Assembly: GCA_964517115.1 (NCBI GenBank)
Contig: CAZFBE010000002.1
Coordinates: forward strand, 6,862-70,861
Length of the DNA: 64,000 nt
Direction of reading: 5' to 3'
Source of the DNA: an uncultured bacterium
GTDB lineage: Bacteria; UBP7; UBA6624
The notes under the pieces are model-generated. The model ran no database searches. It was not told the origin of the DNA and saw only the letters and a program-made list of their open reading frames with translations. Made by a program: the position numbers and the translations under genes. This document shows, in pieces, positions 2,370 to 50,900 of this stretch (positions are counted from its first letter, which is position 1; each line of letters opens with the position of its first letter).

Positions 2370-2926
2370 TTATAAAGACCTCTTTTGAGAATCTTTTCTT
2401 CAACAAGTTTTGGTAATAGGTTTTTCACAGATTTTTTTTCCTTAATTTTCCTTCTTATTTCAGAAGATGAAATTTCCATTATTTTAGATTTGAGAAATGT
2501 TGTTTTATTGTTTTTTTCAGATTCCATTCTTCTTGCTACAACTATATTACAGTTGTCAATTAATTCACTGTAGTTTTTCCAATTTTTTATATCTTTTAAA
2601 TTGTCTTCTCCAACCAAAAGAGATATTTTTTTATTTTCATGATTTTTTTTAACCCATCTGACTTGGTCTATTGAGTAACAGGTTTCATTTTTCTTTTTTT
2701 CAAAATCAGAAATTATGACGTTTTTCAACTGAGCCGTTCCTGCTTTGCAGAGCTGAATTCTTTCTTCAAATGATGCATGAAAATTTTTCCCTACAGGAGA
2801 GATATATGTAGGAATGACATAAATGGGTTTATATTTTTCCTTAATACAAGCATTGATCAACTCTAAATGCGCATTATGAAAAGGGTCAAAGGAGCCTCCA
2901 AAAATTAAAGGATTTATCCTGGCCAT
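2366..2926 (-). CDS. nadD: Nicotinate-nucleotide adenylyltransferase
   Basis: 186 aa. It carries the FGGSFDPFHNAHL (GxFDPxHxxH) nucleotidyltransferase signature at the N-terminus. Confidence 0.85.
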   Translation of the reverse strand: MARINPLIFGGSFDPFHNAHLELINACIKEKYKPIYVIPTYISPVGKNFHASFEERIQLCKAGTAQLKNVIISDFEKKKNETCYSIDQVRWVKKNHENKKISLLVGEDNLKDIKNWKNYSELIDNCNIVVARRMESEKNNKTTFLKSKIMEISSSEIRRKIKEKKSVKNLLPKLVEEKILKRGLYK

Positions 2927-3753
2927 TCTTTTATGCTTTTGATATTTTCAGAATCTACAGGTATTGAGGAGTTTTTATATGTATAAATTTTGGATTTTTT
3001 TGGCAAGATTTCTTTTATTTTTAAAAAATCTTTGATTTTTGTAAACCTTCCAACAAAAACAATTTTTTTTGCATTTTTTGTCTGATGGAGCCAATTTTTT
3101 ACTTCATTCAGAGATGGTATTAGAAGTATTTTTTCATTAATTTTCATCTTATTAACTTTAACTCCTATTATTGGATAACTAGGCATTGTCTTGTCATACT
3201 TTCTTCCTGTTAGTTTTTCATGGATAGAAAGAGAGGAGTTTGTATTGGATATTATTGCAGTATCACAAGGAATAAAATAATTCATGCTGAGGCTTTTCTC
3301 TTCTCCAGGTTTTCCTTTCGTTATTTTTTTCGGCGATCTGTTTACGGAACTTGCAAAAGACCTATTTCCCCTTCCTCCACGGCCACCTTTTAGAGTGAAT
3401 ATTTCTCCTGGTTTTTCAAGTTTTTTAATTAAGTCTTTTTTCAAATCCCTTAACTCTGTTCCAGTTGGAACTTTTAGGATTAGTTCTTTTCCATTTTTTC
3501 CACTTTTGTTATTTTTTCCACCACTAAACCCATTTTCAGCTTTTATAGGTTTGTTTTGTTTGAATTTGTATAAATCAAATACAGAATCATCGGCAACGAT
3601 AGAAAGGTTTCCACCTCGCCCTCCGTTTCCTCCGTCAGGGCCCATACTTGCTCTAAATTTTTGTCTTAGGAAAGAAGATCTTCCATCACCGCCATTCCCA
3701 GCGACTAAATGAATTTCAGTCGAATCTATGAATTTGTTGAAGAATTTACTCAG
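2914..3753 (-). CDS. obg: Obg-family protein with a degenerate (inactive-looking) GTPase domain. The track ORF starts at ATG 3645, but the conserved Obg N-terminus continues upstream to a probable CTG start at 3753..3751.
   Basis: The track ORF begins [12 protein letters not shown], which is internal in Obg. Translating upstream in frame gives (I)[42 protein letters not shown], matching the Obg N-terminus MKFVDEVKIHVKAGDGGNG..REKFVPKGGPDGGDGG. An in-frame TAG lies at 3759..3757 and there is no ATG/GTG/TTG in between. Downstream, the block [14 protein letters not shown] is conserved, but the P-loop, switch I, DxxG and NKxD positions read [17 protein letters not shown] and VGRFTKIKD. Confidence 0.7.
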
Positions 3754-4000
3754 AATCTATTTGTGCTACTTTTTTATTGCCTCTTTTGTTTACATATTTG
3801 ACTATGCCATTGTTTAATGCAAACAAAGTGTAATCTTTCCCAATTCCAACATCTTTACCAGGGTGTATATTTTTGCCCCTTTGTCTAACTAAAACATTTC
3901 CAGTTGAAACTTTTTGACCATCTGAACATTTGACGCCAAGACGTTTTCCTGCAGTTGATCTTAAATTCTTAGTACTTCCCTGACCTGTTTTATGCGCCAT
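3746..4000 (-). CDS. rpmA: 50S ribosomal protein L27
   Basis: 84 aa. [24 protein letters not shown]...VRQRG is the canonical L27 N-terminus. Confidence 0.9.
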
Positions 4001-4001
4001 A

Positions 4002-4316
4002 TTAACCCTCTATTTTTAAAACTTTTAATTGGGTGTATTCTTGTCTGTGGCCAATAATTCTTTTGTAGTTCTTTTTTGCTTTGTATTTTTGGACCCTGAC
4101 TTTTTTATCTTTGATGTGAGCAATAACTTCGCAAGTAACCTTTGCTTTTTCTACTAGAGGTTTTCCAATCTTGACTTTATCCTTATTTATTGTCATTAGG
4201 ATCTCTTTGTAAACAATTTTTTTGCCTTTTTCTTCAGCAACCTTGTCAACAAATACGGTTTCCCCTGAGCAAACTAACATTTGTGTTCCTGATGCTTTAA
4301 TAATTGCCTTCTTCAT
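4002..4316 (-). CDS. rplU: 50S ribosomal protein L21
   Basis: 104 aa. Its N-terminus [46 protein letters not shown] and the rplU-rpmA-obg order match L21. Confidence 0.9.
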
Positions 4317-4346
4317 ATCTTTAATAAAATAAACCCGTAATAGACT

Positions 4347-4352
4347 ATTATA
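4347..4352 (-). promoter_or_regulatory. Candidate -10 hexamer (TATAAT on the minus strand) for the rplU-rpmA-obg-nadD operon
   Basis: The plus-strand attata at 4347-4352 reads TATAAT on the minus strand, about 30 nt upstream of the rplU ATG. No convincing -35 was seen. Confidence 0.25.
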
Positions 4353-4460
4353 TAACTTTTTTTATGGAAAGATTTTTTGGACAGATAACGAACTTGGCTT
4401 TAGTGCTTGCTGTTGTTGGTTTCTTTCTTTGGTTTTTTTCAGCAAAGTTAAGAAAATAAA

Positions 4461-5897
4461 TTAATCCCCTCTCCAGAGAACAGCAATTAATGCTAGACAC
4501 ATTTCATCTAAAGAACTTGGTCCCAGCCTTACGTCAATAGGCTCATTAATATCGTCATATTCACTGAGTGCATAGGCAACGAAGGGGTTATTCATGGTGT
4601 TGTCGAAGGTGCATTTGAATTCAAGGGTATCTCCTCCCCTTATCCTTGGGACAAGCCATCTTCCACCAGGGTAACCAGTATCATAATAGTACATTCTTTG
4701 ATAATAGAAGTTGTAGTTTGGGGTTGCAATCAGGCATTCCTTTTTCTTTTGACCCTCTTCAGGGTTTTTTCGATGGAGGATAACTTCCATGTTGGTTCCT
4801 GTGTAGTGCATATGTGTCCCTATCCCAAAAATTGCTGTTTCGGGAAAGTTTTCTGGGAGTGTAAAGAGAATTGTTTCCTCATGACCCTTTACGTTTGCGG
4901 GAATTACAAAATCGGGATATCCTTTTTCATCATATGAACCTGGGACAAGGCCATTTGGAATTAGATTGTTGTCCTCATCAAGGCTATTGTCATGACTTGA
5001 GCCCCAAACCCAAACATAGGATTTCAGCAAAGGCTGTCTTTTTGTTATTTCAAGCTCAAGTATGCTTGAATCTTTTGGAGGTTCATCGTACTCTTGGTGA
5101 ATGTGGTAGTGTATTTGCATGATGATCTTAGATCCTTCAGGGATATGTATTCCAGATTCCTTTGGAGGGTCGTAAGGTGGGTATCCAGGATTCCATCCTC
5201 CTATCAAACTTACTTCAAAACCTACATCACCAAAGCAGTTGTAGTAACCTTTCTCGCCAGCTGTTTCAGATGATGCCCCCTTCTCGTCAAGCCATAATCC
5301 GACATGATGGACAACCTCGTTGTTTCCAGGAGTTATCCTGAAGTTTGTCATCCATGTGTCCCCCTCGATTTCTGGGTCAAGGACAAAGCACCTGAGCATG
5401 TCGTCTGTTCCTCCCCACTTTTCTCCAACAATCGTGTATTCGGGGATGCTCATTTTTATGTCCGACCTAAAGGGAACCTCTTTTTTCGTCTCTTTGTTTT
5501 TTTCAACCTTTTCACCCATGGGGAAATCAGAATCAATCCACTTTTCCAGAAGGAGTATCTCCCTTTGGGTCAGGGTGGGGTCATCTTTCCATCCAAGCTG
5601 GTTTGGTTCACATGTTTCCGTTTCTCCGGGACCCCATGGAGGCATCCTTTTTGCCTTGATTGCCCTCAGGGCACTCTTCGCCTTTTCTTTGACTTGGTCG
5701 TATGTTTCGAGAGAAAAGTCAGCAACATTCCCATCTGAATGGCATGAGATGCAGTGATCTGAGAATATTTCTGAGATGTGACCTTCCCATGTTACCTCTG
5801 ATTCAGCAAGCGTAAACTCTTCTTGGCTTGTTGCATTTTTTTCTTGACAGGAGTTGAAGATAAGAAAAAAAGAAAAAAGAAAGACTCTTTTCATCAT
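4461..5897 (-). CDS. Lipoprotein fusing a haem-c (CxxCH) domain to a PHM/DBH-like copper monooxygenase, copy A. The track ORF runs to 5921, but the likely start is M9 at 5897, which also removes the overlap with copy B.
   Basis: Signal plus lipobox-like MMKRVFLFSFFLIFNSC. A single haem-c motif CISCH is followed by RMPPWG. The copper-site ligands VVHHVGLW, MQIHYHIH, GTHMHYTG and SLDEMC align with the PHM/DBH CuH (HH...H) and CuM (HxH...M) sites. Confidence 0.7.
   Translation of the reverse strand: MMKRVFLFSFFLIFNSCQEKNATSQEEFTLAESEVTWEGHISEIFSDHCISCHSDGNVADFSLETYDQVKEKAKSALRAIKAKRMPPWGPGETETCEPNQLGWKDDPTLTQREILLLEKWIDSDFPMGEKVEKNKETKKEVPFRSDIKMSIPEYTIVGEKWGGTDDMLRCFVLDPEIEGDTWMTNFRITPGNNEVVHHVGLWLDEKGASSETAGEKGYYNCFGDVGFEVSLIGGWNPGYPPYDPPKESGIHIPEGSKIIMQIHYHIHQEYDEPPKDSSILELEITKRQPLLKSYVWVWGSSHDNSLDEDNNLIPNGLVPGSYDEKGYPDFVIPANVKGHEETILFTLPENFPETAIFGIGTHMHYTGTNMEVILHRKNPEEGQKKKECLIATPNYNFYYQRMYYYDTGYPGGRWLVPRIRGGDTLEFKCTFDNTMNNPFVAYALSEYDDINEPIDVRLGPSSLDEMCLALIAVLWRGD
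4476..5868. repeat. Direct tandem repeat, unit 1 (1393 bp, 100% identical to 5911..7303)
   Basis: The period is 1435 bp. Matching antisense ORFs (4698/6133, 4871/6306, 5304/6739, 5320/6755) and my line-by-line comparison show perfect identity. Flanks diverge at 4475/5910 and at 5869/7304. Confidence 0.9.
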
Positions 5898-5898
5898 T

Positions 5899-7335
5899 TT
5901 AGCTTTTATTGAGAACAGCAATTAATGCTAGACACATTTCATCTAAAGAACTTGGTCCCAGCCTTACGTCAATAGGCTCATTAATATCGTCATATTCACT
6001 GAGTGCATAGGCAACGAAGGGGTTATTCATGGTGTTGTCGAAGGTGCATTTGAATTCAAGGGTATCTCCTCCCCTTATCCTTGGGACAAGCCATCTTCCA
6101 CCAGGGTAACCAGTATCATAATAGTACATTCTTTGATAATAGAAGTTGTAGTTTGGGGTTGCAATCAGGCATTCCTTTTTCTTTTGACCCTCTTCAGGGT
6201 TTTTTCGATGGAGGATAACTTCCATGTTGGTTCCTGTGTAGTGCATATGTGTCCCTATCCCAAAAATTGCTGTTTCGGGAAAGTTTTCTGGGAGTGTAAA
6301 GAGAATTGTTTCCTCATGACCCTTTACGTTTGCGGGAATTACAAAATCGGGATATCCTTTTTCATCATATGAACCTGGGACAAGGCCATTTGGAATTAGA
6401 TTGTTGTCCTCATCAAGGCTATTGTCATGACTTGAGCCCCAAACCCAAACATAGGATTTCAGCAAAGGCTGTCTTTTTGTTATTTCAAGCTCAAGTATGC
6501 TTGAATCTTTTGGAGGTTCATCGTACTCTTGGTGAATGTGGTAGTGTATTTGCATGATGATCTTAGATCCTTCAGGGATATGTATTCCAGATTCCTTTGG
6601 AGGGTCGTAAGGTGGGTATCCAGGATTCCATCCTCCTATCAAACTTACTTCAAAACCTACATCACCAAAGCAGTTGTAGTAACCTTTCTCGCCAGCTGTT
6701 TCAGATGATGCCCCCTTCTCGTCAAGCCATAATCCGACATGATGGACAACCTCGTTGTTTCCAGGAGTTATCCTGAAGTTTGTCATCCATGTGTCCCCCT
6801 CGATTTCTGGGTCAAGGACAAAGCACCTGAGCATGTCGTCTGTTCCTCCCCACTTTTCTCCAACAATCGTGTATTCGGGGATGCTCATTTTTATGTCCGA
6901 CCTAAAGGGAACCTCTTTTTTCGTCTCTTTGTTTTTTTCAACCTTTTCACCCATGGGGAAATCAGAATCAATCCACTTTTCCAGAAGGAGTATCTCCCTT
7001 TGGGTCAGGGTGGGGTCATCTTTCCATCCAAGCTGGTTTGGTTCACATGTTTCCGTTTCTCCGGGACCCCATGGAGGCATCCTTTTTGCCTTGATTGCCC
7101 TCAGGGCACTCTTCGCCTTTTCTTTGACTTGGTCGTATGTTTCGAGAGAAAAGTCAGCAACATTCCCATCTGAATGGCATGAGATGCAGTGATCTGAGAA
7201 TATTTCTGAGATGTGACCTTCCCATGTTACCTCTGATTCAGCAAGCGTAAACTCTTCTTGGCTTGTTGCATTTTTTTCTTGACAGGAGTTGAAAATAAGA
7301 AATAGGAAAATAAGAGTTATTTTTTTTATCTCCAT
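5899..7335 (-). CDS. Lipoprotein fusing a haem-c (CxxCH) domain to a PHM/DBH-like copper monooxygenase, copy B
   Basis: 478 aa. It is identical to copy A from ...FNSCQEK through ...ALIAVL. Only the signal peptide (MEIKKITLIFLFLIFNSC) and the last 3-4 residues differ. Confidence 0.7.
   Translation of the reverse strand: MEIKKITLIFLFLIFNSCQEKNATSQEEFTLAESEVTWEGHISEIFSDHCISCHSDGNVADFSLETYDQVKEKAKSALRAIKAKRMPPWGPGETETCEPNQLGWKDDPTLTQREILLLEKWIDSDFPMGEKVEKNKETKKEVPFRSDIKMSIPEYTIVGEKWGGTDDMLRCFVLDPEIEGDTWMTNFRITPGNNEVVHHVGLWLDEKGASSETAGEKGYYNCFGDVGFEVSLIGGWNPGYPPYDPPKESGIHIPEGSKIIMQIHYHIHQEYDEPPKDSSILELEITKRQPLLKSYVWVWGSSHDNSLDEDNNLIPNGLVPGSYDEKGYPDFVIPANVKGHEETILFTLPENFPETAIFGIGTHMHYTGTNMEVILHRKNPEEGQKKKECLIATPNYNFYYQRMYYYDTGYPGGRWLVPRIRGGDTLEFKCTFDNTMNNPFVAYALSEYDDINEPIDVRLGPSSLDEMCLALIAVLNKS
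5911..7303. repeat. Direct tandem repeat, unit 2
   Basis: Same evidence as unit 1. Confidence 0.9.
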
Positions 7336-9284
7336 GTTTCTATCTCCTCTGCCATGGCTTCAATTCTGTCTCTTAATGCTGCAGCCAACTCGAATTCAAG
7401 ATTATCTGCATGTAAAAGCATTTCTTTTTCCATTTTTTGAACAAGTTTCATACCTTTGCTGTAATCTTTTGAACTCATTGATTCTTCTTCTCCAATCAAA
7501 AACAATTTACTCATTTTTATAGATTTTTTTATACTTTTAGGTTTCTTATTATTCTTTTTATTATATTCTTTCTGAATTTCTCTTCTTCTTGAGGTTTCTC
7601 CTATAGCTTCACTCATTGAAGGGCTTATTGAATCAGCATAAAGAACAACCTTTCCATTTAAATGCCTTGATGCTCTTCCAATAATCTGTATTAGAGACTT
7701 TGTGCTTCTTAAAAAACCTTGTTTATCTGCATCTAATATTGCAATAGTTGAAACTTCTGGGAGGTCCAAGCCTTCTCTTAGGAGGTTGACTCCAACCAAG
7801 CAATCAATTTTTCCAGATCTCAATTGGTGTATTATTTTTATTCTTTCAAGTGTTTTTACTTTTGCATGGAGCCATCCAGAATTTATATTTCTTTCTTGTA
7901 GAAATTCTGAAATTTCTTCTGACATTTTTTGAGTAAGGGCTATTATCAAAACCCTATCTCCCTTTGATTTTGCTTTTTTTATCTCCTTCAAAATGTGGTT
8001 GACCTGATTGCTTCTTGAGTGAATTTCTATTTTTGGATCAATTAGGTATGTAGGTCGAATAATTTGTTCAGTTATTTTTTCTGAATTTTCAATTTCCCAA
8101 GATCCTGGTGTTGCAGAGACAAAAAGAGTTTTATTTGTTTTTTTCATCAATTCATCAAAGTTTAATGGTCTATTGTCGTAGGCAGAAGGCAATCTAAAAC
8201 CATGGTCTATCAGGGATTTTTTTCTAGACCTATCTCCTTTTGGCATTCCTTTAAATTGAGGTATTGATACATGGCTTTCATCGATTATTGTGAGAAAGTC
8301 TTTTGGAAAGAAATCTACCAAGCACGTAGGAGGCTCACCTTTTTTCCTTTGTTGAAAATGTCTTGAGTAATTTTCAATACCTTTAACAGTTCCAAAAGTT
8401 TGTATTTGCTCAAGGTCATAAAGAGTTTTTTCTCTAATCCTTTCTGCTTCTATCATTTTTTCTTCTTTTTTGAAGGAACTCTCACGGATCTTCATTTCTT
8501 CTTTTATTTCGCAAAATATTTTTTCTCTATTTTTGTCATTCACTACATGCAATGTTGACGGAAATATGGTTACCTTCTCTTCAGAAGATATCTTTTCTCT
8601 CGAAATTGTATGAATTTTTTTTATCGATTCAATTTCATTTCCAAACCATTCAATGAGTATTGAGTTCTCCTCTTCAGGGGTTTTTATTTTCATTGTGTCA
8701 TTTTGTCTTTCAAATGTGCCATTGCTGATTGAGCCTGTTTCATAAACATAACCCATTGAAACCAATCTTTTTCCAATGTCTTTTGGCTCTATTAGGTCAC
8801 CCTTTTTTATTGGCAGGATTTTATTTAAATAATCTTTAGGTGCTCCTATTCCGTAAACACTTGAGACCGTTCCTATTATGACTGAATGTTTTGATGTAAT
8901 TAAGTTTTTTACTGCTTGATGCCTCAATCTTTCAATTTCTGTATTTATTTTTGCATCTTTTTCGATATATTTATTTTCATGAACTATGTAAGCTTCTGGT
9001 TGATAGTAGTCATAATAGGAAACAAAATATCCAACAGCATTATTCGGAAAAAAAGTTTTAAATTCTTCGTAAAGTTGTGCAGCGAGTGTTTTGTTATGTG
9101 TTAAAACCAATGTAGGCAAACCCAGTGATTGAATAACATTTGAAACCGTATAGGTTTTCCCACTTCCAGTAACTCCTAACAGTGTTTGTTTTTTTGAGCC
9201 TTCTTCAAAACCTTTTACTATGCTTTTGATTGCCTTTGGCTGATCTCCGGTTGGAGAAAATTGAGTTTTTAGATTAAAGTTCAC
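7326..9284 (-). CDS. uvrB: Excinuclease ABC subunit B
   Basis: 652 aa. N-terminal FSPTGDQPKAI..LLGVTGSGKTYT (Walker A) plus helicase motifs and a C-terminal UVR domain (ELAAALRDRIEAM). Confidence 0.9.
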   Translation of the reverse strand: MNFNLKTQFSPTGDQPKAIKSIVKGFEEGSKKQTLLGVTGSGKTYTVSNVIQSLGLPTLVLTHNKTLAAQLYEEFKTFFPNNAVGYFVSYYDYYQPEAYIVHENKYIEKDAKINTEIERLRHQAVKNLITSKHSVIIGTVSSVYGIGAPKDYLNKILPIKKGDLIEPKDIGKRLVSMGYVYETGSISNGTFERQNDTMKIKTPEEENSILIEWFGNEIESIKKIHTISREKISSEEKVTIFPSTLHVVNDKNREKIFCEIKEEMKIRESSFKKEEKMIEAERIREKTLYDLEQIQTFGTVKGIENYSRHFQQRKKGEPPTCLVDFFPKDFLTIIDESHVSIPQFKGMPKGDRSRKKSLIDHGFRLPSAYDNRPLNFDELMKKTNKTLFVSATPGSWEIENSEKITEQIIRPTYLIDPKIEIHSRSNQVNHILKEIKKAKSKGDRVLIIALTQKMSEEISEFLQERNINSGWLHAKVKTLERIKIIHQLRSGKIDCLVGVNLLREGLDLPEVSTIAILDADKQGFLRSTKSLIQIIGRASRHLNGKVVLYADSISPSMSEAIGETSRRREIQKEYNKKNNKKPKSIKKSIKMSKLFLIGEEESMSSKDYSKGMKLVQKMEKEMLLHADNLEFELAAALRDRIEAMAEEIETWR

Positions 9285-26183: not shown

Positions 26184-27775
26184 TTTTTAACCCTTACACA
26201 GTTTTTCCCTTCAGATTTTGCAACATACAAACATTCATCAGCAACAGATATTATTTCATTTAGAGTATTTCCACTTTCAGGATATGTTGCAACTCCTATC
26301 GAGACTGTGAAGTTGATTTTTTCATCATCATTTACTGGAATTGATATATTTTGAATTTCTTTCAATAGTTTTTCAGCTGCTTTTTCTGTATTTTTGGAGT
26401 CAGACTCGAGTAAAAGGAGCATGAATTCTTCACCACCGTAGCGTCCTGACAAATCTCCTGCTCTTGATCTTTTTTGAATGTATTCGGCAAGGTTTTTCAA
26501 AACCTCATCACCAATTTGATGTCCATAAGTGTCATTAATTTCTTTGAAATTATCAACATCAAGCATCATTATGCTAAAGGTTCCTTCATATCTTTTTGAT
26601 CTTTCAAGTTCAATGTTTCCTAGCTCAAAAAATCTCCTTCTGTTGAGGAGGTTTGTTAAGCTGTCTGTTTGTGCTAGAAGTCTTAACTCTTCTTGTAAGT
26701 TTTTATTTTCCAGTATCCTTGAAAAATCTTTTGCTGCAACTTCGAAGAAGGTGTTGTCACGATTGTTAAATGATGATGAAGCTGATTTCATTAAAGCCAA
26801 AAATCCTACCCTTGAGTTTCTTTCAAAAAGATGTGTAATGATCATGCTTTTGGGTCGAATGTCTTCGACAACTGCCTTTGGCTCTTTCGGAAACTGGAAT
26901 AAACCTTCGGGAAAATTTGTTTTTGAAACTTTTGCTATATCTTCCCAATTAAAAGGACTTAAGGAATTGCGATTCTTTTTTTTCTTGAATATGTTCAAAA
27001 GAGCGTCTAGCAGCTCCGGGTCATGTGTATTTGATTGAGATATTAATGTTTCAGCTGTTTTTTTAGAAAATCTCAGAAAGTGATCTGGATTTTTTTCTAG
27101 TTTAATTTCTTTGTTCTTGTTGGAATAAAACATTATTGCGTAGTCGGCATCCAGTGCTTCATATAATTTTTCTAAAAATATTTCAGCTAAATCTTCTGGT
27201 GAATTTGTCATTTCTGAAATGTTTTTAAGCAAGGAGAGTTCAGCAACCTGCCTTTCAAAATGCTCTCTAAAAACAGAATGATATCTTTTTAAGGTTTCAT
27301 TAAATATTATTTCAAGTTTTTCTTTTTTAAGGTGAATGTCAAAAGCCTCTTTTTCCTCTTTGGAAAGTAAGTTTTTGAAAGTTTTTACACATTTCCAAAA
27401 TGCTTTGTCAATATTTGAAGGATCTATGTCTTTCTCAATCCAGTAATCAAAGTTTTTTTTAATTAGTATTGTTACCTGGTTATCCTTCATTGAGAGGATT
27501 GTTCTGTCAAAAGATGAAAAAACACCAAAAATAAAATCTCCCAATAACTGCCTGATGGATTCAATTGAGTTTTCAGGAAATAAATCTGAGAATTCTTTTG
27601 GAGGCTTGCTTGTAAACTCAATTAGATATTTTCTTAAAATCGTTCTAAGAAAATCATATTTATATTCAATATTTTTTTTCACTTGTAATAATTTTATAGG
27701 TTGTAATGCTCTTATTAGGATAGAATTGCTTTTATTCTGACGCGGGGTGGAGCAGTGGTAGCTTGTCGGGCTCAT
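26180..27775 (-). CDS. GGDEF diguanylate cyclase with a 350-aa N-terminal sensory region. The start is uncertain because the ATG at 27775 is the antisense of the tRNA-fMet anticodon.
   Basis: LTNLLNRRRFFE..DVDNFKEINDTYGHQIGDEVL..RYGGEEFMLLL (GGEEF active site). The first 35 nt of the ORF overlap tRNA-fMet on the other strand. Confidence 0.75.
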   Translation of the reverse strand: MSPTSYHCSTPRQNKSNSILIRALQPIKLLQVKKNIEYKYDFLRTILRKYLIEFTSKPPKEFSDLFPENSIESIRQLLGDFIFGVFSSFDRTILSMKDNQVTILIKKNFDYWIEKDIDPSNIDKAFWKCVKTFKNLLSKEEKEAFDIHLKKEKLEIIFNETLKRYHSVFREHFERQVAELSLLKNISEMTNSPEDLAEIFLEKLYEALDADYAIMFYSNKNKEIKLEKNPDHFLRFSKKTAETLISQSNTHDPELLDALLNIFKKKKNRNSLSPFNWEDIAKVSKTNFPEGLFQFPKEPKAVVEDIRPKSMIITHLFERNSRVGFLALMKSASSSFNNRDNTFFEVAAKDFSRILENKNLQEELRLLAQTDSLTNLLNRRRFFELGNIELERSKRYEGTFSIMMLDVDNFKEINDTYGHQIGDEVLKNLAEYIQKRSRAGDLSGRYGGEEFMLLLLESDSKNTEKAAEKLLKEIQNISIPVNDDEKINFTVSIGVATYPESGNTLNEIISVADECLYVAKSEGKNCVRVKK

Positions 27776-27815
27776 AACCCGAAGGTCGCAGGTTCGAATC
27801 CTGCCCCCGCACCCA
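27741..27815 (+). tRNA. Initiator tRNA-fMet, anticodon CAT
   Basis: CGCGGGGTGGAGCAGTGGTAGCTTGTCGGGCTCATAACCCGAAGGTCGCAGGTTCGAATCCTGCCCCCGCACCCA is near-identical in outline to E. coli tRNA-fMet. It has the C1xA72 mismatch and three G-C pairs in the anticodon stem. Confidence 0.8.
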
Positions 27816-27821
27816 GGTTTT

Positions 27822-27895
27822 GGCAGCGTAGCTCAGCTGGTTAGAGCGTCCGGCTCATACCCGGGAGGTCCTCGGTTCAAGTCCGAGCGCTGCTA
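27822..27895 (+). tRNA. tRNA with a CAT anticodon: elongator tRNA-Met or tRNA-Ile2 (lysidine)
   Basis: GGCAGCGTAGCTCAGCTGGTTAGAGCGTCCGGCTCATACCCGGGAGGTCCTCGGTTCAAGTCCGAGCGCTGCTA. The T-loop TTCAAGTCC resembles Ile2-type tRNAs and the gene lies immediately upstream of tilS. Identity cannot be settled by eye. Confidence 0.65.
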
Positions 27896-27909
27896 TTTGC
27901 CTAAAGAGT

Positions 27910-43634: not shown

Positions 43635-44804
43635 TTATTCAAGTTCGTCATCTTTCAAAGCTTGATAAGCATGCTGTTGGGCCAAGTCTTTACCAGTTGG
43701 TCCATCTTTGCTTTCAATCCATCTTTTTTTAACTTCTTTTTGGATTTTTGGCAAAGTTGTATATTCCATTTGGTCTGGTGGAAGTCTGTGAGGCTCAAAT
43801 GGTCCGTGCATTCTCATGTAGTCAGCGACATCATTCGCTTTTTGTCTTGCATTGTCAAATCCAGGATCATTAAACATGTCTCTAGGTCCAACCAGCATTC
43901 CATCTGCAATTTGAAAACCAGCACCAATAACCCTTGGGGGGCCATCGAATCTGCTGGGATTGCAGTCTTCGAATGAACAAGGCATCATTGGTCCTGTATG
44001 AGATCCTCTCATCCATCCAGGGACGAGATGAGGAAATGCAAATGGGTTTGTCACTTCTCCAACTGCAGGCAATCCTGACTGACATCTGATAATCATTGCA
44101 GGGTCATCTTTTCCTATGTATTTTCCAGCCAAAAGTGAAAGCTTATCAGTTGACATTGTTGCTGCTGGAATTTTGTCTCCCCTTCTTCTGATGTTTTTTA
44201 TAACATATGTTTCAACAGCCCCAATGAAAGCAAGAATCTTGTAAGACTCTTCAGGAGCTTTCAATGTGATGATTTTATTATTTTTGACATCCATGATATC
44301 GAATTCAAAACCAGCATGCATATTCTCATCAATTACCAATCCTGGAGTGTTGAATGGGTCAGCAAACATTTTATAAGCTGGGAAATTCCATGCTCCTGGG
44401 CTTGTTTTATCTGCAAGAAAAACAATAAAAGGTTCACTTGTTCTTTCTTCAAATTCCATTTCTGCGCATCCAGGACCCATGCCTTTGATGTTCCCAGAAA
44501 AACCTTCAGACAATAGATCTTGGCCAGCTCCATAAAGTTTTAATTTTTTTGCAACTTTTGTACCTTCAACAAATGTATCCCAGCCCAACTTGTGAATCTC
44601 TTCACAGTCTTCACCTTTGTCATGTGTCATTACCAATGCCATGTCATCTCCAACCCACAAAACTCTAAAGTCTTTAATTTGACCTTTGTCTTTTGAGGAT
44701 TGCAGTTCTTCTTCTGCTTTTATTATTAAGTCTGGATGAATTGCAGAATGTCCTACAAATCCACCAATATCTGCTTTTATTACGCTTAAGGTTGTTTTAG
44801 TCAT
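43635..44804 (-). CDS. fbp: Bifunctional fructose-1,6-bisphosphate aldolase/phosphatase (archaeal-type, class V FBPase)
   Basis: 389 aa. The N-terminus MTKTTLSVIKADIGGFVGHSAIHPDLI matches the hallmark start of FBP aldolase/phosphatase, and the family length fits. Confidence 0.8.
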   Translation of the reverse strand: MTKTTLSVIKADIGGFVGHSAIHPDLIIKAEEELQSSKDKGQIKDFRVLWVGDDMALVMTHDKGEDCEEIHKLGWDTFVEGTKVAKKLKLYGAGQDLLSEGFSGNIKGMGPGCAEMEFEERTSEPFIVFLADKTSPGAWNFPAYKMFADPFNTPGLVIDENMHAGFEFDIMDVKNNKIITLKAPEESYKILAFIGAVETYVIKNIRRRGDKIPAATMSTDKLSLLAGKYIGKDDPAMIIRCQSGLPAVGEVTNPFAFPHLVPGWMRGSHTGPMMPCSFEDCNPSRFDGPPRVIGAGFQIADGMLVGPRDMFNDPGFDNARQKANDVADYMRMHGPFEPHRLPPDQMEYTTLPKIQKEVKKRWIESKDGPTGKDLAQQHAYQALKDDELE

Positions 44805-44937: not shown

Positions 44938-47900
44938 ATGAAAAAATTCATAAAATTAGTATTTTCTTTAATCATCTTTTCCATTGTTTTTTCTGCCTGT
45001 AGTGGTGGAGGGAATGAGGATGTTGGTTCTCCTCAATTTATTACAGGAGCTTTAGAGCCTGGACAGGTTGACGAATCTTACAACATGCTTTTGGAGGCTA
45101 CCGGAGGTAGTGGAGACCTGGATATCTCTCTTTACAACATCAATGATCTTCCTTCTGGTTTGGAATTTGATCCAAGTAGTTCTACTTTATTTGGTATCCC
45201 TGTTATTGGCACTACTGTTGAGTTGCTTTTTAAAGTTACCGATGAAAGGGGTGAAACAGGCGAGACTCGTCTTGTTTTAAGGATTAACCAAGGGCCAGAG
45301 GTCACCCTTGCTCCGTTTGCTTATCTTCTTGACGAAGAAGGCAATAAGGTTCCTGTCGGCAGCGTTGATTCAAGATGTACGGAAGAAAATTCTGATACTT
45401 GTACTTTTGTTACAGATTCAACCACAAACATTGATCACTCCGTTTTAGATCTTTACGTGGAATTTCAAGAGACCGATGCTGAGGATAATGTAATTGTTGA
45501 ATGGGAGCAAATTAGCCCAAGCCAATGCAGAGGGACAGTAACAACAAATGAAGGGCAGATTCTTCTCCAACCTTTTTATCCCTTAACGCCTGCAACTAAT
45601 CTTCAAGATGAAGAGGGTCAAACTATTTCTAATCAATATTTCAGTCATGCAGTTTGGCATGCTCCGAACCTAGATGAAGATTCAGGATGTGCTCAAACAG
45701 ATATTCCTGTTACCCTCAGGGTCCGAATGTCTGATGACAAGGGTGGATTTACTGAGGCAGACATAAACTTAACTGTCAATTATGTTGCAGAATTCAATAG
45801 CCCAGCTACTGTTACTTCCTTTGAATGGGAAGACGAAAAAGGGACTCCAAGAAACAGTGAAATAATCGAGCCTGGACAATCTTCAGGAGGGTCTTTCAAT
45901 GCTGAAGATGTTAGTGATGATGGTTCTGGAACATCTAATGATAATAATTATGTTTGGTTAGCTGCTGAGTTCCAGAATGGCAATATCTCAGAATCAGAAA
46001 ACATCAGCCTTATAGGCTGGAGTGTTAATTTGATAGGTGAAAATTTACCATTTGAAGGGGAGGTTGAAATTGATGAACCTACAAATGGCAAAGTTGGAGA
46101 TACTAATGATCCTTCTAGCGGTTTGCTCTGTACAAATGAACCTGGACAACAGCCTGTTTTCTGTGGTCGTTTTAGACCTCTTGTAAGTAGGGATGTTGAA
46201 GGTGCGAGTGACCAATATGAAATTAGTGTTACAGCTCAAGACATTTATGGTGGAGTTGGAAGCACGACTTGGCTTATTACTGTTTCCGATAGCGGAACTT
46301 CAAGCGGTGGAGGAGGCGGTGGCCCTGCTTTTAAAAACTCAATTCCTGTGATAACTGGAAGCAATCCTCAAGCACAAATTTCAATGGAGGTTAGTGAAAC
46401 TACAGGAGCCAATAGGCAGGTTAGTGTAACTGCTGATGATAATGATTCCGATATCATCAGGTATTGGTGGTCTCTTGACATAAACAACTCAAATGCAACG
46501 CCTAATGGATGTGTTACCGACAACAGTCTTGCAAATTTATGGGGTCATGACAATTGGTCTTGGGATCCAAATGCTGGATTTAATTCTTTGGTTCAGGATG
46601 TAAATTCAAATGATGCTATTCTTTCAAACAGTGTTGTAAGGAATCCAGACCTGAATGTACAAAATTCAATTCTTCGAACATTGGATACGGTAAACTCATC
46701 TCCAGCGATTTCTTCTGTTGGATTTACATTTACTCCTGGACAGTGTGCGGGTGCTGTTGCTGGAACAACATGTGTGAGAATTGACAATATTCAGGCTTTT
46801 GGTGGGGTCCAGAATGGTGTCTCTATTCCAGTAAGGATTAGTGATGATGCTGGTACCGAGTACATGGACACTTTTATTACTTCTGTTTCAGCTGATCCAG
46901 ATCCTTTGAATGCTCCTGCAGGAAATCTAGAAATAGCAGAAACTCTTGAGGACGACTATTCGATAATGAATAATGCAAGAGTCAGCATAAGGTGTGCATT
47001 ACCTATAAGTGTTTCTGTTGCGGACCAGATAGCAATCCAGGGATTTCTTGACAACGGTAATGGGTTGAGTCATAACAGCATTATCGACACTGATGTTTCT
47101 CAAGATTTTTCAAGAGTTTGTGGAAGTGATGATGTTCTTGGAAACCCTTTGTGTGATTGGGGGCATTTTGTTATAGTCTTCCCTGACCCTTCTGAAACTT
47201 GCTCTCCGTATGCTGAGCAAAACTGGAGTACTGATGGTTGTTACCAAAGAGCTCAAGTGACATCTGTTGACCAAAGTACAGGAACATTAAACCTAGATAG
47301 ATTTTTGACTTTAGATACCAATGACCAGTACCAAATTCTGGGATGTGATTTAGGTGGAATTTTCACCCCTTCTGATTCAGGTGATGATTGTGACAAGTCT
47401 GACGAGTCGATTGTTACTGTTACTTTTAGTTCTCCAAATGTTAACAACCCCCCTCAGATAACTTCTGGACCATCAATTTCCGATGATCCTATATTTGAAT
47501 TTTCAACTTTAGATGCTTCTAAGACAACTGTTTCAGTTTCTGTAGAAGATTCTGATGGCCCTGGTTCTTGTGCCCTATCTTGGACAGACCCATGTGGAAC
47601 TATGAAATACTATTGGACTGACTGGAAAGGTAGTAACAACAATGCAAATACGAGGGCATATCTTGTTCAAAACGGTACTTTTGGATCAAACACTGTTGTT
47701 GTCCAAGGTTCTTGTAATCGACATGAACAGTATAGGCCAGTAAGGGTTAGCGATAGTTCAAACCCTCTTGGGCATGAAACAACAATAGAAAGTTGTATTG
47801 AGTCTGGTAATTTTGGTAATCAAAATGCTACTGTAACTTTGGCAACCAATTTAGACAACAATTACCTTACGAGTAATTTGGCAATTCTTGAACATATGCA

Positions 47901-50900
47901 GTGGGGCTCTTATGGACCTTCTGCGAGTATAGAAAGCAATAATGGCATTTGGGCAAAAACAGGTGTTAGCGGTATTGTTTGGACTGCTCCATCAGCTGAT
48001 TTGAATGGTGTTGATATATGGACTGGTGAAACTAACTTCAGGATAAGGGTTGTTGCTGTTGACGGAACATGTCGTTATCCGGGGATTTTAGACTTCCCTG
48101 AGGCTCAATTGTGTGATTCAGCAAGTGCTTCTGTTGGTGTTATAAACAATGTAGAGCCGTCTGCAGGTTTGACTTTTGAGATACTTGACGAAAATCCAAC
48201 TAACTTAAGGGTTAGTTTTGATGCTTCTTCAAGTTTTGATTTGGATTCGGGTCCTGATGCTTTGAAGTATATGTGGGACTTTGATTCTGACGGTACTAAT
48301 GATTTGACAACTTTGAATTCAATTTACATTCACACTTACACCGAAAATGCCCCTTTCTACGATGCGACACTAACCGTTACAGATGGAATCTCAAATGATT
48401 CCGAGACTGTAAGGATTCAGGTTAATCAGGCTCCGGAAGTGCCTAAGATATGGATATATGGTGTTGATGAAGATCCTTCAAATTGTATAAACACAGGATG
48501 TGAACAAGGGCAATTCTCAAATGCTCTAGAAAGCTTTACAACCATGAATCCAATTTCTACTAATCCGACAGAATTTGTGAACCCTTCAACAGGGAAGTTC
48601 ATTGGGCTTGGTGTTGGTATCTGTGATGATGACAATATCCAAACTCTTGAATGGGACCTTGACTATGATGGAGTTTCATTTTTTGCAGATGTTATACAAA
48701 ATAGTTTTTCAAATATAGATTCTTCTGCATTGTCTGTAAATGATACTGTCATTTGTGATGCTTCTGGTGAACAGAATTTCTATCAATGGGAACTTAATTC
48801 AACAGATGGAATAAATGGCCTAGGTTCTCAAATGAATTTTGCTAGTGATTACAGGGTTGCTGTAAGGGTTGTTGATGAAGAGGGTGCTACGAGTAACTTG
48901 ATGTGTTTGAATGTTTATGGTGATGTTAACGGTGCTTGGGATGCGAAGCTTTGTAGGGAAGGAGACCCTCAAAGCAATTTGGAAATCCCTCTAACTGTTG
49001 GTAATGATGAGATGATAAGTGGTGACATCAATGAAAATGATGAATATCCATTCTTGCCTGCTGAAGGTGTTGATAACAGCCATTCTCAAGGTCAACACAA
49101 TATTAGATTTGTTCAAACTGGTCCTGATACTGGAATATTGCATTCAATCTGGATATCTTCATCTTTGGATGAATGTTTAGGTGGAGAAACTCAAATAAGG
49201 TACAGGAGAGGTGCTTATGATGGCTCAGACCCTAATAACAGAGATATCAATTGGGAAGAAGCTCAGAATATTTCACATGAAGAACCAAGCAATGGAATCA
49301 AATGTGGAAGTAATGCTGAATCTCCAAATTTGACTGTAGATCCTGGCAATAGCGATCATTTGATTGTTTTCTTTGGAGATGATGAGAATGGTGACTTGGA
49401 TGTTTATTGGATAGAAAGTATTGATGCTGGTTCCACTTGGTCTCAAAGAAACTCTATGCCAGGTCTTGGAAATAGTGATTTGAGGGCTTCTGGACAAGGT
49501 GCACAAACCCAGCCAGTTTTATCCATAGAGCCTACTACAGGAAGTCCGTTTGATGATTTCTGGCATTTGAGTTTTGTGGAAGCTTCAAGTGGTCGTGCAA
49601 AGATGTTCCACATGATGAGTGATGACCAGGGTGCAAGCTGGGTTGATGGAAACAAGTATGACCAAAGAATAAACAATGCTCCACAGGTGCACGTAAGGGT
49701 TGCAGCAGGTTTTGATGTTTCTGTTGGAATGGCGACAAATGAATCTGGCCCTGATTTGGAATGCTGGGTTAGCGATTATGAGGATGATGGTGGATTTTTA
49801 GCACCTGTGAATCAGACTTGCGAATGGAATGCAAACTATGACACAAACATTCAAAGGGCAGGTGGAGGTTTCAATCCTTCCTTTATTGAAAATGACAGTT
49901 GTGAAAATGATTCAGGTTGGGGTAATTCAGCCTCTGTTCTTTCAGGTTATTCATATGCAACAACAGGCTTGAAGAGAGTTGGTGCGAGATTCACAGACTC
50001 TCATGGAGCTGTTGGGTGTGGTGTGATTTGGGTTCCTGTGAATAATAACCAGGATCGTCCACCTGTTCCTGTGATGAGGTTGAGAAACCCAAGCAACAAC
50101 AATAGGGCTATAGGAGAATTGGATGAAACTGGAAACCTTTCCGTTGAAGCACAGTGTGCTTGGCGTGTAGGTGGTTTTGGAGATAATAACAGAGGTTCTT
50201 ATGACCCTGATGAAACAAGCTTTACATGTGAATTTGTTTCCGATTGGGATCCTGCTACTGCATGGACATCGCAGAATGTTCAAACAGTTAACTGTAATCC
50301 AAACAACAATCCAAATTCAGGTTCGAATTGTGCTATTGATTTAAGTTATTCTGATTGGCAAGGATTCGCTTCTGGAGATGCAAGAACCCGTGTTGGTTTG
50401 AGGGCATGTAGTGGTGGTCCAAACCCAGGAGAATGTTCACCGATTATTTGGAGTCATCTCTATGTTGATGATTACGAGAATAATGCTCCTGTTGTTTTGC
50501 TCAAGATTGAGGAAGACCAGAATGAGGCTTGTTCGCTAGCTTCTGCAGGTGTTTTGAACCATGACTTGGCAACACCATCATTCAATGTTTGTTTTGATGC
50601 AACGGCATCATTTGATAGAGAAGATGAATTTGTCAATTTTTCAAATGGATCTCTTATCTGTGATTCAAATTCAATAGCTACAAGTGCCCCAATTGTCACA
50701 GACAATGGAGACGGTACTGGAAAATGTACTTTTAGGGAAGTTGGAGATTATGCTGTTAAATATGAATTGACAGACAATAATGGAGAGGTTGGAGAAAGAA
50801 CAGTTTTGATATCCGTTGGTTATGGAGACGATCCGAGTTCAGATGGTTACCAGCATGACATAAATGCTGGAAATAGCGATCCACAAGCTGTTGCAATAGT

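Follow-up and report, generated by a model that had tools for sequence, protein, structure and literature searches.

Two tandem genes, here called A and B, lie on the minus strand of the window, the whole 64-kb stretch of DNA that was analysed. Both encode a lipoprotein signal, a haem-c domain and two copper domains (CuH and CuM) resembling those of PHM. PHM (amidated hormones) and DBH (noradrenaline) are the textbook non-coupled two-copper monooxygenases of animals. The features are listed below; residue numbers refer to gene A.

5899-7335, minus strand: gene A (478 aa), with a lipoprotein signal, a haem-c domain and CuH and CuM domains of PHM type
4461-5894, minus strand: gene B, 477 aa from ATG 5894; architecture as in gene A
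5911-7293: upstream copy of a direct repeat (gene A core), 1383 nt, exact
4476-5858: downstream copy of the direct repeat (gene B core), 1383 nt, exact
7282-7335, minus strand: signal peptide of gene A with its lipobox, MEIKKITLIFLFLIFNSC; lipidation predicted at Cys18
5841-5894, minus strand: signal peptide of gene B with its lipobox, MKRVFLFSFFLIFNSC
6931-7248, minus strand: gene A cytochrome c domain, residues ~30-135; helices 38-49, 67-82 and 112-123
7174-7188, minus strand: gene A haem-attachment motif C50-I-S-C53-H54; gene B equivalent at 5739-5753
7078-7080, minus strand: gene A Met86 in RMPPWG; invariant, putative sixth haem ligand
7045-7047, minus strand: gene A Cys97 in the haem domain; invariant, family-specific
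6169-6171: gene A Cys389, candidate interdomain disulfide partner of Cys97
6466-6903, minus strand: gene A CuH (N-terminal catalytic) domain, residues ~145-290
6739-6744, minus strand: gene A H198-H199, PHM H107-H108 by alignment (CuH ligands); gene B 5304-5309
6538-6546, minus strand: gene A H264-Y-H266, with H264 equivalent to PHM H172 (third CuH ligand); gene B 5103-5111
5902-6465, minus strand: gene A CuM (C-terminal catalytic) domain, residues ~291-478
6241-6249, minus strand: gene A H363-M-H365, PHM H242 and H244 by alignment (CuM ligands); gene B 4806-4814
5932-5937, minus strand: gene A M467-C468, PHM M314 (CuM ligand) and C315 by alignment; gene B 4497-4502

The ATG of gene A overlaps uvrB (7326-9284) by the last 10 nt of uvrB, and only 4 nt separate the stop of gene A from the start of gene B. 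The latter gene most likely begins at ATG 5894 (477 aa) or ATG 5897, because such a start agrees with the orthologue in the related locus L001 and with the products of 477 and 478 aa listed for a 72.6-kb NCBI contig, which also has a UvrB sequence identical to that of the window; TTG 5921, taken from the list of open reading frames, is probably too far upstream. Promoter and terminator scans of positions 3900-7600 gave background level only.

The lipobox reads MEIKKITLIFLFLIFNS-C18 in gene A and MKRVFLFSFFLIFNS-C in gene B. The FNSC of both genes is non-canonical; in homologues, LAAC, LAGC or LVGC occupies this position. A hydrophobic stretch precedes the aligned Cys in 185 of 218 full-length homologues, and the canonical LAAC or LAGC is found in most. 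The h-region of the gene B signal is copy-specific and orthologous to that of copy B in L001 and in a second related locus, L002.

Haem and copper domains

The motifs quoted in the initial annotation (LIFNSC, CISCH, RMPPWG, VVHHVGLW, MQIHYH, THMHYTG and SLDEMC) are all present in both ORFs on the minus strand, with their coordinates in agreement. Profile searches, chosen beforehand as a test of the assignment, placed the C-terminal part of the protein in the copper type II monooxygenase family. For the window protein, Pfam Cu2_monoox_C narrowly passed its cut-off of 23 with 23.3 bits; Cu2_monooxygen (15.9 bits, gathering score 30) and Cytochrome_CBB3 (21.8 bits, gathering score 27) fell short of theirs. 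Across 30 diverse family members, these models matched in 28, 26 and 28 sequences, respectively, the last at E <= 0.01, and the copper-domain matches reached E values of 4.5e-9 and 4.6e-8. A single-sequence phmmer search against the PDB returned nothing meaningful; PHM (E 2.6e-10), DBH (5e-8) and cytochrome c6 (0.005) were reached by the family profile only.

Alignment with rat PHMcc by hhalign, for which the PHM sequence was checked to be that of 1SDW, spans both catalytic domains with a probability of 97.6% and an E value of 4e-12. It pairs H198/H199 with PHM H107/H108, H264 with H172, H363/H365 with H242/H244, and M467 with M314. In the same alignment, Q262 corresponds to PHM Q170, and the cysteine pairs C171-C222 and C430-C468 correspond to C81-C126 and C293-C315. 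Two consecutive beta-sandwich domains with a PHM/PNGase F-like fold were found. An AlphaFold model (pLDDT 80, pTM 0.77) served as the query for Foldseek, which retrieved PHM at E 9e-17 and DBH at 1e-13.

The CuH ligands H198, H199 and H264 are conserved in 248-250 of 251 homologues and the CuM ligands H363, H365 and M467 in 246-247. These six residues, together with C50, C53, H54 and M86, do not vary among 30 sequences aligned at 34-41% identity, and their conservation among the 251 homologues is 98-100%, so the haem and copper motifs are not due to chance. Family-specific features include H266, a His conserved in 223/251 sequences, and an insert in the CuM domain with a conserved GLxPGxxD; H340 and E342 are invariant. 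Judged by alignment and predicted structure, the catalytic part is a two-copper core of PHM/DBH fold with complete CuH and CuM ligand sets, presumably loaded with copper.

For the haem domain, the best matches are generic class I cytochromes (Cytochrome_CBB3, cytochrome c6 and PccH), and the NCBIfam c551 and c550 models scored far under their cut-offs. An affinity to the PSCyt models (PF07635, PF07583, PF07627) was considered and rejected: PSCyt3 alone appears, with 12.3 bits against 27 over 24 residues (E 0.22), and it matches 0 of the 30 members at E <= 0.01. The label "planctomycete-type" given to this domain at the outset is therefore better replaced by generic class I. Helix 38-49 directly precedes C50-I-S-C53-H54, and a distal Met and a three-helix cytochrome c fold were found. 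The CxxCH motif, whose absence from orthologues had been named as a possible objection, is present in 233/233 homologues with an intact N-terminus; the 18 sequences without it are N-terminally truncated fragments. The domain can be read from its sequence as a mono-haem class-I-like cytochrome c that would carry haem with H54 and M86 as axial ligands, the role of M86 being putative. No cytochrome c maturation genes (Ccm or Ccs) occur among the annotated ORFs of the 64-kb window. As annotated initially, both genes thus encode a lipoprotein signal, one haem-c domain and a PHM/DBH-type two-copper core, and the ligand assignments are borne out.

Since C97 and C389 are the only two unpaired invariant cysteines, they are candidates, by elimination, for a disulfide that would link the haem and CuM domains. 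If this bond is real, the haem may lie nearer to CuM than to CuH, which makes the order of electron transfer proposed below uncertain.

Identity of the tandem copies

Genes A and B differ only in the h-region of the signal peptide and in the final 3-5 residues, and the repeat copies are 100% identical over 1383 nt, with a period of 1435. Outside the pair, L001 and L002 agree at 99.95% identity, yet inside it they differ by 105 and 109 nt. These differences fall in three blocks, the same ones in both copies, at residues 226-259, 279-313 and 404-416, and relatives carry cassette-like mosaic blocks. The two genes probably form a tandem pair of long standing that is transcribed together with uvrB and whose cores have been held nearly identical.

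Another possibility, whose odds fall only a little short of even, is that the identity of the copies is partly a product of assembly, in which two non-identical paralogues, or a single gene, were represented by the same graph branch walked twice. Both the exact identity of the core and the shared blocks that separate L001 from L002 would suit such an origin. Hybrid sequences point in the same direction, namely P0268 and P0270, which combine the N-terminus of A with the C-terminus of B in other assemblies, and P0273, which has the reverse combination on a 2-kb contig; the contigs of L003 and L086 break within a copy. However, the A-to-B junction, with its distinct signal peptide and the same synteny, occurs in three independent data sets, and the start of copy B is seen in a fourth relative, so the tandem pair itself is real. 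Block 3 of L002 is alike in both copies although a mere ~65 nt separate it from copy-specific sites, which implies that at least some of the homogenisation is real there. The architecture is unaffected either way.

Electron supply, substrate and alternative functions

The preferred reading, with a probability of roughly 0.6, is that of a periplasm-facing lipoprotein comprising a non-coupled two-copper monooxygenase of PHM/DBH fold, with the N-terminal mono-haem cytochrome c as its point of electron entry. After export via Sec, the protein would be lipidated at Cys18 and would receive haem on C50 and C53, with H54 and M86 as axial ligands. Periplasmic or respiratory c-type carriers would then reduce the haem, from which two electrons would pass, singly, to CuH and on to CuM. 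O2 would be activated at CuM, followed by hydroxylation of a substrate C-H bond. The haem would thereby stand in for the ascorbate of the animal enzymes, which is a doubtful donor for a periplasmic bacterial enzyme. The analysis supports the domain identity, the ligand conservation, the fold, the export signal and the family-wide coupling of both modules; the loading with haem and copper, the direction and route of electron transfer and the hydroxylase chemistry are inferred, with the protein's own haem as the probable electron source. Even for PHM and DBH, the entry of electrons into CuH and their crossing to CuM are still debated.

The enzyme had also been suggested to be self-sufficient, a term that goes too far, since a single haem still requires an upstream reductant. 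Complex I genes within the window indicate a respiratory organism. Clustering of ORFs at 81 loci revealed no conserved partner gene, which would fit an enzyme bearing its own redox module; the conservation of the neighbourhood among relatives, raised as a question by the initial annotation, is thereby answered in the negative. Two ORF clusters were discarded as neighbours, the first consisting of antisense shadow ORFs produced by crude calling in high-GC genomes and the second being a Cys-rich repeat protein of myxobacteria whose distance varies. Three annotated gene contexts had nothing in common. An Rfam scan of the window detected four tRNAs and nothing else.

In the hhalign alignment, G361, L469 and L471 take the place of R240, N316 and Y318, the residues that anchor the carboxylate and backbone of the C-terminal glycine in PHM. 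Within the family, position 361 is G, A, F, L or S, and position 469 is L, I, V, A or M. PHM orthology with a peptidylglycine substrate was therefore rejected, and the substrate should be something other than a glycine-extended peptide; the suggestion of a peptide, made among others at first, is thus unlikely as far as a PHM-like substrate is concerned. The accessory domains of longer relatives (LTD, DUF4397 and AhpC/TSA) carry too little information to serve as substrate clues.

In one of these relatives, P0210 (1251 aa), the module is fused to two AhpC/TSA-Redoxin domains plus a further cytochrome c, which could hint at peroxide or thiol chemistry instead of O2 and cytochrome electrons. The copper might accordingly use H2O2, in the manner of the LPMO-like "peroxide shunt", with the haem priming the copper with one electron or handling peroxide. 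PHM is able to run a peroxide shunt. Cytochrome-driven reduction of LPMOs has been found to alter their H2O2 handling (PMC8981238). Such a peroxygenase is nevertheless unlikely: the fusion is the only one among 266 sequences, and thioredoxin-fold domains in the periplasm serve just as frequently in the maturation of haem or copper sites. The two copper sites known from the O2-dependent enzymes are conserved in full, and a His/Met-ligated haem would be a poor peroxidase.

The direction of electron flow might also be reversed, with the copper domain oxidising a substrate as an oxidase or dehydrogenase and the haem passing electrons to the respiratory chain. Fused class I cytochrome c domains are the electron exits of many periplasmic dehydrogenases, and the gene context does not fix the direction. 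The full set of CuH and CuM residues, including the CuM Met and Q262 (PHM Q170), is nonetheless typical of electron-consuming monooxygenases, and we know of no PHM-fold member that acts as a dehydrogenase, which makes reversed flow quite improbable. It is very improbable that the protein is a non-catalytic lipoprotein that retains the PHM fold for periplasmic copper binding, copper buffering or redox sensing, as the lack of a substrate and an operon partner and the housekeeping context might suggest, because both three-ligand sites, the two PHM disulfides, H266, H340, E342 and GLxPG are near-invariant at 34-41% identity, which argues for a constrained active site.

If the proteins are indeed haem-fed monooxygenases, they might be the first prokaryotic ascorbate-independent hydroxylases of the PHM/DBH class, wired to the respiratory cytochrome c pool via a disulfide-tethered haem, with the tandem isoenzymes of this marine lineage swapping loop cassettes for substrate specificity. 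This wider proposal is tentative, and the odds lean against it.

Known systems and distribution of the family

PHM shares 16-21% identity with the proteins described here. Unlike PHM, they are bacterial, anchored as lipoproteins and equipped with an N-terminal haem-c domain; they contain a ~30-residue insert with GLxPG, the invariant H340 and E342, and the extra H266; they have no PAL partner domain, and ascorbate is presumably not their donor. In the group of DBH, tyramine beta-monooxygenase and MOXD1 (PDB 4ZEL), DBH has a DOMON domain, and not a c-type cytochrome, as its additional domain. DBH also has a C-terminal dimerisation domain and is a eukaryotic secretory-vesicle enzyme fed by ascorbate and cytochrome b561.

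A natural fusion of a class I cytochrome c domain with a copper enzyme of the periplasm, giving built-in haem-to-copper transfer, also occurs in the copper nitrite reductases with a tethered cytochrome c, such as RpNiR of Ralstonia pickettii. These differ in their cupredoxin fold with T1/T2 copper and in their C-terminal cytochrome, and they reduce nitrite without C-H oxygenation. In comparison with mono-haem class I cytochromes (PccH of Geobacter, PDB 4RLR; cytochrome c6), the haem domain here is part of a larger enzyme and has the additional invariant Cys97. A functional likeness exists to the c-type cytochrome domain CjX183 of Cellvibrio japonicus Cbp2D, which reduces and activates bacterial copper LPMOs, and to the cytochrome domain of fungal cellobiose dehydrogenase, in that a small extracytoplasmic haem domain replaces small molecules as the physiological reductant of a copper monooxygenase (PMC8981238). 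LPMOs, however, have a single histidine-brace copper, an unrelated fold and the cytochrome on a separate protein, whereas the present cytochrome is joined in cis to a two-copper core of PHM type.

No NCBIfam model for the haem-c-PHM family or other curated family model was found. The literature yielded no published study of a bacterial or cytochrome-fused PHM/DBH homologue, within a coverage of subscription journals that is incomplete; this agrees with the initial statement that no such fusion has been characterised. The architecture had been called new as well, and here the databases disagree, since it is widespread among bacteria and carried by thousands of public sequences; it is uncharacterised rather than unseen.

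Present work on PHM and DBH depends on ascorbate-driven animal enzymes that are difficult to produce. A bacterial homologue with a covalent haem as both reporter and donor would allow spectroscopically triggered electron-transfer studies and would exemplify how the PHM/DBH fold was adapted to the bacterial envelope. The family, large and unannotated, may also bear on envelope or secondary-metabolite chemistry. The architecture occurs in ~3,300 clusters at 50% identity and at 250 loci among GTDB species genomes, mostly in Myxococcota, with members in Sorangium cellulosum So ce56, Nannocystis and Enhygromyxa that are mostly named "hypothetical" in the databases, or else "monooxygenase".

Domain identity of the tandem proteins

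The two cytochrome c-PHM-like proteins are encoded by tandem genes directly downstream of uvrB, in a tightly packed same-strand run (polA, an S1-like gene, coaE, uvrB, A and B) that is apparently co-transcribed; rplU and rpmA lie downstream of gene B.

Gene pair (window positions)
7326-9284, minus strand: uvrB, with A and B directly downstream
5899-7335, minus strand: gene A, ORF of 478 aa
4461-5921 as listed, minus strand: gene B, ORF with start most probably at ATG 5894

With its ATG within the final codons of uvrB, gene A overlaps that gene by 10 nt (7326-7335). For gene B, the most probable start codon is ATG 5894, 4 nt past the gene A stop: its orthologue at L001, a locus in another assembly, starts at the equivalent position, and one 72.6-kb NCBI contig bearing the exact UvrB sequence of the window lists products of 477 and 478 aa. 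The GC content is 0.39-0.40 in 4001-8000 versus about 0.32 in neighbouring 2-kb windows. Positions 4476-5858 and 5911-7293 form an exact direct repeat (1383 nt, 100% identity, period 1435), which confines the differences between the two proteins to the signal-peptide h-region and the last 3-5 residues.

Every motif string quoted in the initial annotation is present in the sequence. With Pfam, the window protein matches Cu2_monoox_C (23.3 bits, cut-off 23), while Cu2_monooxygen (E 0.015) and Cytochrome_CBB3 (E 2e-4) stay under their cut-offs; the supposed planctomycete-type character of the cytochrome was not borne out (PSCyt3, insignificant at E 0.22). NCBIfam holds no model for the family. 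An alignment of 30 homologues (A1, 34-41% identity) shows the haem-attachment motif C50xxC53H54, M86-P-P, H198-H199, H264-Y-H266, H363-x-H365, M467 and six more cysteines to be invariant (gene A numbering). Scanned singly, its members match Cu2_monoox_C (28/30), Cu2_monooxygen (26/30) and Cytochrome_CBB3 (28/30). Its profile retrieves PHM (E 2.6e-10), DBH (5e-8) and cytochrome c6 (0.005) from the PDB, and in hhalign it matches rat PHMcc, the sequence of which is identical to 1SDW, across both catalytic domains (97.6% probability, E 4e-12), with all copper ligands in register.

Residues aligned by hhalign (family, PHM)
H198, H199: H107, H108
H264: H172
H363, H365: H242, H244
M467: M314
Q262: Q170
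C171-C222: C81-C126
C430-C468: C293-C315

Profile searches thus place the C-terminal part with Cu2_monoox_C, PHM and DBH. The AlphaFold model (pLDDT 80, pTM 0.77) agrees, with Foldseek probability 1 for PHM (E ~1e-16) and DBH (1e-13) only, so that profiles and predicted structure alike support the structural interpretation first proposed. In the model, helices are predicted at 38-49, 67-82 and 112-123, with CxxCH immediately past the first and Met86 ahead of the last, the layout of a class I cytochrome c.

A widespread family

The fusion of cytochrome c to a PHM-like module is a family trait. A word-indexed search returned 961 homologues, the best 120 nearly all full length, and an exhaustive profile search 3,345 clusters (50% identity, E <= 1e-30); across GTDB, sampled at one genome for each species, relatives are encoded at 250 loci. 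The architecture, initially described as new, is therefore already in the databases, under names such as "hypothetical protein", "monooxygenase", "mono/diheme cytochrome c family protein" or [quoted passage not shown]. A full-text literature search for a bacterial or cytochrome-fused PHM/DBH homologue found no description. What the window holds is thus a widespread uncharacterised variant of a known enzyme class. The best 80 of the 250 loci are mainly from Myxococcota (Sorangium, including So ce56, Nannocystis, Enhygromyxa, Labilithrix, Polyangiaceae) and include two uncultured marine MAGs close to the window.

Among 251 sequences covering both copper sites, the copper ligands are 98-100% conserved. 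CxxCH is present in all 233 with a retained N-terminus; the other 18 are 5'-truncated fragments. Because 185 of the 218 full-length members show a hydrophobic stretch followed by Cys, often in a canonical lipobox (LAAC/LAGC), the window proteins are regarded as lipoproteins despite their unusual FNSC. No neighbouring gene is conserved across the family.

In one case, a metagenomic relative of 1251 aa (P0210), two AhpC/TSA-Redoxin domains, a thioredoxin-like domain and an extra cytochrome c are fused to the module; other longer relatives add C-terminal LTD or DUF4397 domains. Another protein (P0184, 1064 aa), with CxxCH at positions 39 and 592 and two stretches matching the family profile, may hold two modules. 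Gene duplication recurs outside the window's lineage: in three Nannocystis genomes (L009, L012, L019) the opposite strand encodes a second distant paralogue (~26% identity to the query) at a distance of 3-5 kb, and L069 carries two diverged copies in tandem (33% to the query).

Putative function

The substrate-anchoring residues of PHM, R240, N316 and Y318, align with G361, L469 and L471, positions occupied by small or hydrophobic residues throughout the family, and a peptidylglycine hydroxylase is rejected on these grounds. Conserved family-specific features are H266, a ~30-residue insert with GLxPGxxD, the invariant H340 and E342, C97 in the haem domain and C389 in the CuM domain. With two cysteines accounted for by haem and four by PHM-type disulfides, just C97 and C389 remain, and PHM lacks a cysteine at the position of C389. 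It is therefore reasonable to propose them as a candidate interdomain disulfide.

Domain identity and the conservation of the ligands are shown by the comparisons above. A putative haem-to-copper hydroxylase is a plausible reading, for which we infer cofactor loading, the direction and path of electron flow, and the chemistry as follows. The protein would be a periplasm-facing lipoprotein whose haem c (His54/Met86) would be reduced by the pool of respiratory c-type carriers and would pass electrons via CuH to CuM, where O2 would be activated and some non-peptidylglycine substrate hydroxylated. The earlier term "self-sufficient" overstates the case, as one haem still requires an upstream reductant. 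The nearest functional precedent found is the reduction of bacterial LPMOs by CjX183, a c-type cytochrome domain (PMC8981238). Rival readings are a peroxygenase, reverse electron flow and a non-catalytic copper protein.

History of the pair and the rest of the window

Within the lineage to which the window belongs, uvrB and rplU invariably flank the pair. L001 and L002, from independent assemblies (90-91% identity to the window protein), share the order uvrB-A-B-rplU; at L086 (a 77% relative) the start of copy B is present before the contig ends.

Gene-pair regions compared
L001: 10001-12875
L002: 8001-10875
window: 4476-5858 and 5911-7293

Each copy has N- and C-termini of its own, and these are orthologous across genomes. 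The cores of A and B differ by 0, 6 and 10 mismatches within the three genomes, versus 87-154 nt across genomes. This looks like concerted evolution, with a caveat. Outside the pair, a comparison of L001 with L002 over ~14.5 kb shows just 8 differences (flanks 99.95% identical); inside it, there are 105 in copy A and 109 in copy B, clustered in three sharply bounded blocks that the copies have in common (aa 226-259, 279-313, 404-416). Every block comes in two discrete versions, which occur in different combinations among relatives. Either assemblers followed a single branch twice where the real copies differ, collapsing two paralogues, or cassettes are really exchanged, with gene conversion. 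Hybrid genes occur in other assemblies (A N-terminus with B C-terminus, and the reverse on a 2-kb contig), and some other contigs end inside a copy. Block 3 of L002, with copy-specific sites ~65 nt away, does not differ between the copies, and this speaks for some real homogenisation. The architecture is unaffected by the assembly question.

Apart from the pair, the window carries housekeeping genes, among them polA, coaE, ftsH and those for complex I. Further features are:

2914-3645, minus strand: Obg-like ORF of just 243 aa in the usual rplU-rpmA-obg position
27741-27896, plus strand: two tRNA-Met (CAT) genes
43635-44804, minus strand: class V fructose-1,6-bisphosphate aldolase/phosphatase (Pfam FBPase_3, E 2e-174)
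44938-57372, plus strand: single ORF of 4144 aa, GC 0.40-0.43

The Obg-like ORF may be a GTPase-less remnant or variant of Obg: no obvious P-loop was seen in its translation, and its L001 orthologue, also 243 aa, matches only the GTP1_OBG N-terminal fold. The 4144-aa product, from a region above the window's average GC, is presumably a giant protein of the surface or adhesin type; Pfam finds one PKD domain (residues 1089-1162), a weak Sde0182_C match and nothing else. The class V aldolase/phosphatase, a type known mainly from archaea and deep-branching bacteria, may be informative on where this low-GC marine organism belongs. The two tRNA genes are separated by 6 nt and adjoin a GGDEF-domain gene and ftsH.
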